NCBI RefSeq assembly: GCF_056746865.1
Contig: NZ_JBWKMP010000008.1
Length of the DNA stretch: 4,315 nucleotides
Direction: 5' to 3' (one strand)
Origin: a plasmid
A program made the position numbers and the translations under genes. The notes beneath the pieces were generated by a model. It was not told the DNA's origin. It saw only the letters and a list, made by a program, of their open reading frames with translations, and did not search any database. Positions within the stretch are counted from its first letter, which is position 1. Each line of letters begins with the position of its first letter. Below, one piece after another: positions 560 through 4,092 of the stretch.

Positions 560-754
560 TTATGTTCCTGTTTCACTTTCAGTCTCAAAGCGAACCTGGA
601 TGCTGTTCTGGAGTTCTTCCGCGAGTTCGTGCAGTCGTTCGCACATGGCCGCCTGTTCGTCGGCATCCAGAGCATCCAGTTTTTCAAGCAGTGTCAGGCT
701 CTGGCTTTTGATAAATCGCGCCATATTCAGCGCAGTTTGTTGCTGTTTGTTCAC
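560..754 (-). CDS. rop: Rop/Rom, the RNA I-RNA II pairing modulator protein (64 aa, GTG start)
   Basis: Translation MNKQQQTALNMARFIKSQSLTLLEKLDALDADEQAAMCERLHELAEELQNSIQVRF... aligns by eye with pBR322 Rop (MTKQEKTALNMARFIRSQTLTLLEKLNELDADEQADICESLHDHADELYRSCLARF...). GTG start as in pBR322 rop. GGAG/GGAAG motif just upstream on the - strand. Position and orientation relative to ori match pBR322. Confidence 0.92.
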   Translation of the reverse strand: MNKQQQTALNMARFIKSQSLTLLEKLDALDADEQAAMCERLHELAEELQNSIQVRFETESETGT

Positions 755-2939: not shown

Positions 2940-3854
2940 TTATTTGTTTAATCTCTTTATACTGGTCTCTACATATGTAGGGTTTATTTCGAAACCAATA
3001 TAATCCCTACCTAAATCTTTCGCTGCTACCAATGTAGAACCACTGCCACTAAAAGGGTCAATGACTAATTGACCTTTTTGTGTTGTTAATTCTATAAGTG
3101 TTTTCATTAAGGCTACAGGTTTTTGTGTTGGGTGTAATCCACTTTCATTGCTGGAAAATCCAGCTGTAATGACATTTTCAGGTTTGCCATTTCTTGCTAC
3201 AAATGCATCTTGATTATAAGCACCGACACCATGAATAATTGCATTATCTGCAATTGTGCCGCCAATTTTATATGGTTTAGAGAACCATAGTATGGGTTCA
3301 AAGGTTGGTTGTAGATTTCCAACTCGCCATCCATTCCATTTTTCTGCGTTTAATGTATCCCCGCGCCTTTCGTAAACGCAACTCAACCTTTGGGCTCTGT
3401 GAGGGGCTTTTACTCTCATCCATGCAATTATATCGCGAAGATTGAATCCAGCATCTTCCATTGCACATATGCATCGATGAGAAAATCTTCTGCCTGCAAA
3501 AATAATTGCACTGGCACCTGGTTTTAATACTCTGAACCATTCAGTAGCCCATTCTTCACACCATTGCTGATATTCTAATGGTATTTTCTTATCAGCCTCT
3601 GACCATCCATTTATTGGTTTTCCTCTTTTTTTAAAAATAGCACCTGCGTTTTTCTGCGCAGGGCTTGAACCTAGGTATGCGTTATTTGAGTTATTATGTA
3701 GCACATCCCAGTCTTCTGCTCCTATCCCATAAGGGATATCACTGAGTATTAAATGTGCATATTGTGATGGGAGTTTTTTTATTAATGATATCGAGTTACC
3801 ATTGGTAACGGTATTCTTTTTTATTTCATCAGGTAATTGGATCTTGTTTAACAT
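2940..3854 (-). CDS. DNA methyltransferase, beta-class (motif IV near the N-terminus, motif I near the C-terminus), amino-methyltransferase (N6-adenine by analogy to M.HindIII); 304 aa
   Basis: Motifs seen in the translation: LILSDIPYG (motif IV, DPPY-like), HPTQKP, VIDPFSGSGSTLVAA (FxGxG AdoMet-binding motif I). RBS AGGAA upstream of ATG at 3854 on the - strand. Convergent partner of the HindIII-like endonuclease. Confidence 0.9.
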   Translation of the reverse strand: MLNKIQLPDEIKKNTVTNGNSISLIKKLPSQYAHLILSDIPYGIGAEDWDVLHNNSNNAYLGSSPAQKNAGAIFKKRGKPINGWSEADKKIPLEYQQWCEEWATEWFRVLKPGASAIIFAGRRFSHRCICAMEDAGFNLRDIIAWMRVKAPHRAQRLSCVYERRGDTLNAEKWNGWRVGNLQPTFEPILWFSKPYKIGGTIADNAIIHGVGAYNQDAFVARNGKPENVITAGFSSNESGLHPTQKPVALMKTLIELTTQKGQLVIDPFSGSGSTLVAAKDLGRDYIGFEINPTYVETSIKRLNK

Positions 3855-3912
3855 CTAAATTCCTGCTCTTTCATAGCTTTAAAAACACGCTGATAGTATA
3901 CGTTAAAGTACC
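3855..3912 (-). promoter_or_regulatory. Candidate promoter/leader of the methyltransferase gene (-10-like TATACT, + strand 3895-3900), immediately adjacent to the RNA I terminator and RNA II promoter
   Basis: TATACT hexamer read on the - strand. No convincing -35. Placement is inferred. Confidence 0.3.
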
Positions 3913-3948
3913 TTGACGCAGGATTACCTTTCATCGTAGCCTTTCTGA
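3913..3948 (+). promoter_or_regulatory. RNA II promoter (-35 TTGACG 3913-3918; -10 candidate TAGCCT about 3937-3942)
   Basis: Position equivalent to the pBR322 RNA II promoter just upstream of the aaaaaacc...RNA I terminator sequence. The -10 assignment is approximate. Confidence 0.55.
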
Positions 3949-4053
3949 AAAGAAAAAACCGCCTTGCAGGGCGGTTTTTTCAAGGTTCAAAGAACTTGCA
4001 GGTTTTTGAACCACGGTAACTGGCTTTGTGGGAGCGCAGTCACCAAAATCTGT
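3949..4053 (-). ncRNA. RNAI: RNA I, the antisense copy-number control RNA (about 105 nt), complementary to the 5' end of RNA II
   Basis: 5' end placed by analogy with pBR322 RNA I (acagtatttggtatctgcgc... corresponds here to the reverse complement of gcgcagtcaccaaaatctgt). 3' end at the shared terminator hairpin. Confidence 0.8.
3953..3980 (-). terminator. RNA I terminator hairpin (aaaaaa-ccgcc-ttgcag-ggcgg-tttttt), which also forms the 5' stem-loop of RNA II
   Basis: Seen directly; equivalent to the pBR322 aaaaaaaccaccgctaccagcggtggtttgttt element. Confidence 0.8.
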
Positions 4054-4057
4054 TCTT

Positions 4058-4092
4058 TCAGTTTAGCCTTAACTGGCAAGAAACTTCAAGAC
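4058..4092 (-). promoter_or_regulatory. RNA I promoter (on the - strand: -35 TTGAAG = + strand 4084-4089; -10 CTAAAC = + strand 4061-4066)
   Basis: Same arrangement and near-identical hexamers to the pBR322 RNA I promoter as I recall it (TTGAAG...17 bp...CTACAC). Confidence 0.6.

Follow-up and report, generated by a model that had tools for sequence, protein, structure and literature searches.

The window analysed here, 4315 bp of contig NZ_JBWKMP010000008.1 (assembly GCF_056746865.1), is a complete circular plasmid whose cut point of rotation lies inside the origin, and it has full-length matches (100% coverage, 99.8-100% identity) in five E. coli and Salmonella plasmid records that are likewise 4315 bp long. 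The interval under study, 3855-4060, begins at the start of a DNA methyltransferase gene (M; minus strand, 2940..3854), which encodes an EcoVIII-type enzyme of 304 amino acids from the HindIII specificity family according to the open reading frame (ORF) list, with its ATG at 3854. M is annotated as a site-specific DNA-methyltransferase in the identical records, and its NCBIfam matches are adenine-methyltransferase families. On the other side of the interval lies a replicon of the ColE1 type, as shown by an RNA I matching Rfam family RF00106, its three stem-loops, the position of the RNA II promoter, a rom gene and the homology of the origin region, which matches more than 5000 ColE1-type plasmids. 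The interval appears to be the junction of an EcoVIII-type restriction-modification (R-M) cargo and a ColE1 replicon. We measured 95 nt (3855-3949) between the M ATG and the point at which RNA I ends and RNA II should start, in agreement with the initial annotation, which had been made from the letters of the window and had put about 95 bp between the two starts. In the reading that we favour, to which we assign a probability of roughly 0.6, M would be transcribed mainly from a weak sigma-70 promoter of its own, with a good -10 and essentially no -35, placed back-to-back with the promoter of the RNA II primer. RNA I would halt efficiently at a normal strong intrinsic terminator, the few escaping polymerases would add to M transcription as a minor by-product and not as a control device, and the tight packing and linkage of these elements would be an outcome of ColE1 modular evolution, in which cargo modules are placed right next to the RNA II promoter, which in this plasmid forms part of the module.

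RNA I, the antisense copy-number control RNA, is encoded on the minus strand at 4053..3950. RF00106 matched 4051..3950 over its full length (1-102) at 85.8 bits (E = 1.5e-15), well over its gathering score of 47, and by analogy with ColE1 RNA I we take the 5' end to lie 2 nt further out, at ACAG (4053). This match confirms that RNA I and M run on the same strand and in the same direction. The RNA folds into three canonical stem-loops (dG -42.9 kcal/mol, z = -5.1), and its promoter (minus strand, 4060..4089; -35 TTGAAG 4089..4084, 18 bp spacer, -10 TAAACT 4065..4060) was the top minus-strand match, with a score of 7.7, of a simple sigma-70 position weight matrix (PWM) that we ran on both strands with consensus-base frequencies from published compilations. 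Both TTGAAG and the -10 are also conserved in the cross-clade alignment described below. Stem-loop 3 is the intrinsic terminator hairpin (minus strand, 3952-3981; GAAAAAACCGCC / CUGCAA / GGCGGUUUUUUC), with a 12-bp stem made of a CCGCC/GGCGG core lengthened by A-U pairs and followed by a U6-C-U4 run (3958..3948). The terminator had been placed earlier at 3953-3980; the hairpin is indeed found there, with its limits corrected to 3952-3981. On the plus strand, the same DNA (3952-3981) encodes stem-loop I of RNA II.

The RNA II promoter lies on the plus strand, with its -35, TTGACG, at 3913-3918 and its -10, TAGCCT, at 3937-3942, separated by an 18-bp spacer (PWM score 7.3). Both hexamers were assigned by positional homology with the nearest backbone relatives that carry other cargo, L005 (NZ_CP104673.1; TTGACT, 17 bp, TATCGT) and L006 (CP057515.1; TTGAGA, 17 bp, TAATCT). 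TTGACG, which had already been pointed out at these positions, is invariant in alignment A1. We infer that RNA II +1 lies at about 3948-3950, a placement based on the pMB1 start. A consensus promoter and terminator scan reported no promoter at all. Its silence on an M promoter is uninformative, because it overlooked the two known promoters, those of RNA I and RNA II, and also the terminator of RNA I, the last presumably by extending the stem into the U-run.

To place the M promoter we relied on relatives of the gene. A tblastn search with M recovered 18 enterobacterial plasmids among 72,556 plasmid records, eight in the clade of the window and ten in a sister clade whose M protein is 85.8% identical. 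RNA I lies on the same strand directly upstream of M in all 12 of the M carriers that were inspected, with a gap of 95 nt (also in L001 and L004) or 87 nt (in eight sister-clade plasmids). Between the two clades the M coding sequence is 76% identical and the replicon bodies 72-75%, and the leader region, 55 bp around the M -10, only 31-38%. Within this poorly conserved leader, the candidate -10 (minus strand, 3893..3900), found by the PWM scan and the sister-clade alignment, consists of TACTAT (3898..3893) overlapping TATACT (3900..3895). TACTAT aligns without gaps with a TATAAT that is invariant in 8 of 8 sister-clade plasmids, where the flanking bases vary, and the distance from this -10 to the RNA II -35 is 14 bp in both clades. 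The retention of a -10 at a fixed 14 bp in a leader that is only 31-38% identical argues that M has a promoter of its own. Both candidate hexamers carry the A at position 2 and the T at position 6. The expected -35 (minus strand, 3916..3923) would be CTGCGT (3921..3916, 17 bp) or TCCTGC (3923..3918), which overlap the RNA II -35; no sigma-70 -35 hexamer was found 16-18 bp from the -10, and no extended -10 TG. On these letters, the M promoter is predicted to be weak and -10-dependent, with a start near 3886-3888 and a leader of 32-34 nt that contains a Shine-Dalgarno sequence, AGGA (minus strand, 3864..3861), 6 nt before the ATG; the sister clade has AAGGTG at the equivalent place. An UP element at -40 to -60 of this promoter was rejected by eye, the stretch not being A/T-rich.

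The predicted M start and the RNA II start are about 62-64 bp apart, and the predicted M -35 and the RNA II -35 fall within the same 10 bp on opposite strands, sharing bases 3916-3918. The earlier description of the two promoters as divergent and nearly back-to-back is thus upheld, with the M promoter as a predicted partner. It had also put the RNA I terminator immediately upstream of the M -10; the terminator is upstream, but the word is loose, as 45-55 bp separate the RNA I end from the best candidate for the -10 (3893-3900). Furthermore, a start well inside 3855-3890 with a complete promoter had been named as an observation that would speak against coupling of M to RNA I. The predicted start does fall there, but the promoter is incomplete, with no better than 2/6 in its -35.

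A second placement would bring the M promoter nearer to the gene, with a -35 TTAACG at 3906..3901, a -10 TTTAAA at 3883..3878 and a start near 3871. Its PWM score of 5.4 is among the best of the minus-strand candidates of the interval, and the sister clade has a -35-like hexamer at the aligned position (TTGACA, TTAACA or TTGGTA), which is a perfect TTGACA in L008 and L011-L013. The -10 with which it pairs in the window, however, lacks the critical A2 and T6, the corresponding hexamer is poor in every sister-clade sequence (TAATCG, AAACCA), and the score is within noise. We therefore consider this placement very improbable. A promoter-like site was also seen on the plus strand at 3870-3899 (TTCATA 3870-3875, 18 bp, extended -10 TGaTAGTAT 3894-3899), with a PWM score of 8.5 as compared with 7.3 for RNA II; it would initiate near 3906 and read into the RNA II promoter. 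It was rejected as a real promoter since it is not conserved in the sister clade, and it is probably a by-product of the palindrome GTATAC, which it has in common with the minus-strand -10.

Several observations weigh against M having its own promoter as the main source of transcript. The minus-strand candidates for M in 3855-3950 score 3.7-5.7, within the noise of the plasmid-wide scan (156 of 42,840 positions at 5 or above), and all of them stay below the RNA I and RNA II promoters (7.7 and 7.3); the -35 agrees with the consensus at 2/6 positions at best. On the letters alone the PWM would not identify an M promoter, and the cross-clade comparison appears to do better. In addition, M detached from RNA I was never found, either among the 72,556 plasmids or in 5,426 E. 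coli genomes, so that no natural case shows the M promoter working alone. Lastly, because the M promoter is so weak, a read-through of a few percent from the strong RNA I promoter could make up a sizeable share of M mRNA.

A second reading, which we hold to be improbable, is that a substantial part of M mRNA comes from read-through of the RNA I terminator. The level of M would then depend on the RNA I promoter and, through it, on replication control, as the initial annotation had proposed. RNA I and M are co-oriented, and no second terminator or stable structure lies between them: the minus strand of 3835-3949 has no structure beyond that of shuffles (z = -0.07) and nothing terminator-like from the RNA I terminator to the M start. 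A polymerase escaping the RNA I terminator would therefore transcribe M, as the annotation had stated. The weakness of the M promoter on sequence, the retention of the arrangement in 18 of 18 R-M plasmids and the fact that M is never seen apart from RNA I also favour this reading. So does a difference from L005, in which an additional terminator, active in both directions, directly precedes the RNA II -35; the R-M plasmids have no equivalent. This terminator (2340-2365, between the HigA gene and the RNA II -35) is a perfect GGCCGC-TATAT-GCGGCC with flanking A/T runs, and it would insulate the replicon both ways and would also stop RNA I read-through.

Other evidence, however, makes a controlling role for read-through unlikely. 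The RNA I terminator is canonical (12-bp stem, U6CU4), its hairpin (dG -18.3 kcal/mol) falls within the stability range found for seven other ColE1 replicons (-17.2 to -20.4), and its U-run is at least equal in length, so there is no sign of selection for leakiness. The hairpin is 85-88% conserved between the R-M clades. The M -10 is conserved at its fixed position in both clades. Chimeric transcripts of RNA I and M would also carry the determinants for decay by RNase E and PcnB that are present in RNA I. Recombination at the border of replicon homology accounts just as well for the linkage of M and RNA I, and full-text searching of the accessible literature found no report of RNA I read-through into cargo genes. 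As for the supposed benefit, that methylation would keep pace with copy number, RNA I synthesis is constitutive and should rise with gene dosage, as should the output of any constitutive plasmid promoter; tying M to RNA I would then yield no copy-number tracking beyond that which an ordinary constitutive plasmid promoter already provides. The dosage of M would follow copy number simply because the gene sits on the plasmid. The coupling of modification capacity to replication control that was first proposed is thus not supported, and an M promoter of its own, with a low level of read-through added to it, would account better for the arrangement.

The DNA shared by the two promoters turned out to be closely associated with the R-M cassette. 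A blastn search with the 45 bp 3906-3950, which hold the upstream half of the M promoter and the whole RNA II promoter, matched 18 of the 72,556 plasmids, exactly the 18 M carriers; more than 5000 of those plasmids match this replicon. The nearest non-R-M relatives of the backbone lose homology to the window in a zone at 3933..3946 according to sequence comparison: homology ends at 3933 in L005 and at 3942 in L006, within the RNA II promoter or directly after it, and for the non-R-M relatives of the sister replicon (94% identical) at the equivalent of about 3946. Similarly, the matches without an M gene in the 5,426 complete E. coli genomes begin at 3931-3952. Chance can hardly account for the association of this RNA II promoter variant with the R-M cassette (18 of 18, none elsewhere). 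Because the 45 bp occur only in R-M carriers and non-R-M homology ends at the RNA II -10/+1, we conclude that R, M, the predicted M promoter and the RNA II promoter are one co-inherited block, with the two promoters back-to-back, which has been joined to different replicon bodies, at least two of them, at the RNA II -10/+1.

The simplest reading of this linkage is neutral. Inter-replicon crossovers would occur at the first conserved replicon sequence, the RNA II -10/+1, and because recombination crosses over there, the RNA II promoter stays with the cargo. A different explanation, which we hold to be improbable, is that the overlapping promoters are a functional unit in which polymerase exclusion or supercoiling coupling tunes primer synthesis and M expression, either reciprocally or jointly, and that they are co-inherited and conserved for this reason. 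The closeness of the predicted starts and the bases common to the -35 regions are in line with it, as is the restriction of the block to R-M plasmids. Between the two R-M clades the block is 90% identical (35 of 39 positions in 3910-3948), compared with about 75% in the coding sequence of M and in the body of RNA II, and with the far lower values of the leader; against a background of 0.75 this gives a binomial P of 0.02. Elsewhere, the spacer of the RNA II promoter varies freely in spite of an identical RNA II 5' end (L018, L023, L032 and L041). This excess of conservation is modest, however, and a more recent exchange of a short segment could yield the same; the M start and its -35 are predictions, and the linkage is expected anyway if crossovers take place at the first conserved replicon base. 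The excess conservation and the spacer variability leave a thin margin for a constraint of function, such as the double use of this DNA as the upstream half of the predicted M promoter.

In its strongest form, this would mean that the R-M cassette carries its own RNA II promoter fused to that of M, and that the shared -35 links M and primer transcription mechanically, by mutual exclusion or supercoiling, a proposal that we likewise regard as doubtful. If it were true, a defence cargo would set or sense the rate of replication initiation of its replicon, and deletion of the M promoter would damage replication; should an interaction between the defence-gene and primer promoters be demonstrated, cargo would have a modestly new means of acting on plasmid replication. 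On the ordinary reading, the interval is just a compact junction between cargo and replicon in a plasmid already known. The strict linkage of primer promoter and R-M cassette is the only new element here, the arrangement itself (compact divergent promoters at a cargo/replicon junction) being ordinary. It means that the primer promoter of a ColE1 plasmid may be part of the cargo module instead of the replicon body, which matters for delimiting ColE1 'origins' in plasmid typing and vector design and for the way in which an exchange of cargo could change copy number.

The two backbone relatives illustrate how this slot can be filled. L005, which carries a HigBA toxin-antitoxin system, and L006, which carries AbiE, have this other cargo in the place of the window R-M genes. 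As in the window, the cargo lies within tens of bp of the RNA II -35, and the replicons are 94-96% identical, but the RNA II promoter differs in sequence from one plasmid to the next. The gene next to it in L005 points toward RNA II and is closed by the bidirectional terminator. We further compared 20 natural enterobacterial ColE1-type loci, collected via a conserved RNA II motif, of which about 17 had enough flank. An ORF of at least 100 amino acids on the RNA I strand, starting 54-206 nt past RNA II +1, was present in five to six of these, and in about ten the RNA II strand carried an ORF that stops 45-120 nt upstream. All are unfiltered ORFs, with family support for that of L051 (AAA ATPase) only. 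The adjacency and co-orientation of M and RNA I are not unusual among ColE1 loci. At one of the loci, L049 (Pantoea eucrina NZ_MAYN01000003.1), a 151-amino-acid minus-strand ORF begins within the region of the RNA II promoter, about 54 nt from RNA II +1. Neither Pfam nor NCBIfam gave a match for it, and it is unrelated to the ORF of L024. Because its start is only about 54 nt past the RNA I end, this ORF has almost no room for a promoter of its own, and if it is a real gene it would be a better candidate for RNA I read-through than the window M. L001 (NZ_CP064016.1, 3001-6874), one of the eight M carriers in the clade of the window, is a variant of the small plasmid inside an 87.7-kb IncFII plasmid with mcr-3.5, beside IS26. 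Its M protein is 95.7% identical and its junction is identical to that of the window over 3825-4075, so that it looks like a cointegrate that has retained the RNA I / M junction intact.

With respect to well-known systems, the window has the canonical ColE1/pMB1 control, with a three-stem-loop RNA I, a terminator overlapping RNA II +1, promoters at homologous positions and rom, and it differs in the RNA II promoter (TTGACG, 18 bp, TAGCCT), which is specific to the R-M-bearing plasmids. In pBR322 the neighbouring bla gene points toward the origin, the opposite of the window M, which points away from it. Overlapping divergent promoter pairs are also familiar from tet / anti-tet (P1) of pBR322 and from tetA/tetR of Tn10. 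If the M promoter lies where it is predicted, the window would resemble them in having two opposite-strand sigma-70 promoters that share the DNA of their upstream halves, and polymerase competition would be expected for this reason. Unlike in those pairs, one partner in the window makes a replication primer, and no repressor or operator is evident.

The timing and balance of type II R-M systems can be governed by C proteins, methyltransferase autorepression or antisense RNAs, and these systems and the window have a problem in common, that of providing enough M relative to R. No C-protein gene was identified in the plasmid, and M has no N-terminal extension before its catalytic motif. Control of the M promoter by cognate-site methylation was ruled out, because the plasmid contains no AAGCTT; for this HindIII/EcoVIII site, 1.9 copies were expected from shuffles of the 4315-bp plasmid, and the count of zero, which is consistent with cognate-site avoidance, is statistically unremarkable at this length. 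A brake made of rare arginine codons has been described in ecoVIIIR (PMC6456624).

Judged by its length, gene content, primers and codons, the window plasmid, together with its parts, appears to be already known as a member of the pEC156/EcoVIII family. pEC156 (GenBank AF158026) is a ColE1-type plasmid of 4312 bp, as compared with 4315 bp for the window, comes from E. coli E1585-68 and carries the EcoVIII R-M system (Mruk et al. 2001, 2003; PMC4743918; PMC6456624). As in pEC156, RNA I, RNA II and rom are present in the ColE1 replicon of the window, and its R and M genes, which belong to the HindIII family, are convergent. The 3' parts of published pEC156 primers match the window at 1822-1834 and 2088-2102, and the AGG-AGG at codons 16-17 of ecoVIIIR (PMC6456624) is present in the window R when counted from the ATG at 2016. 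The open-access pEC156/EcoVIII papers contain no mapping of the M promoter or start and nothing on RNA I read-through or on a shared promoter block, and they leave the extent of the fragment cloned in pRR unspecified. In line with the reading that we favour, however, ecoVIIIM is credited with a promoter in published work, the construct pT7-EcoVIIIM being listed as a fusion 'with its own promoter' in a plasmid table (PMC6456624).

Outside the interval, the rom gene lies on the minus strand at 560..754 according to the ORF list and the Rop annotation of the identical records. The plus strand of 1585-1908 holds a 97-amino-acid ORF without an NCBIfam match, of which a shorter form of 75 amino acids is annotated as a hypothetical protein in the identical records. 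Behind this ORF lies a strong terminator hairpin (about 1884-1905), which explains sub-threshold Rfam matches to rsmX, the Trp leader and isrK. The endonuclease gene R, of the HindIII family, corresponds to the plus-strand ORF 1944-2939 and is convergent with M. Its start is ATG 1944 (331 amino acids) in the ORF list and the RefSeq records, and ATG 2016 (307 amino acids) is the one that fits the published AGG-AGG codons. R and M stand tail-to-tail with a spacer of zero, one stop codon ending at 2939 and the other beginning at 2940, and because there is no terminator between them each transcript must run antisense into the other gene. In this regard, a terminator-like hairpin on the plus strand at 3795-3809 (GTTACCATTGGTAAC, then a T-rich tail), inside the 5' end of the M coding sequence, could stop antisense transcripts from R before they reach the RNA II promoter; 0.7 such matches are expected in shuffles.

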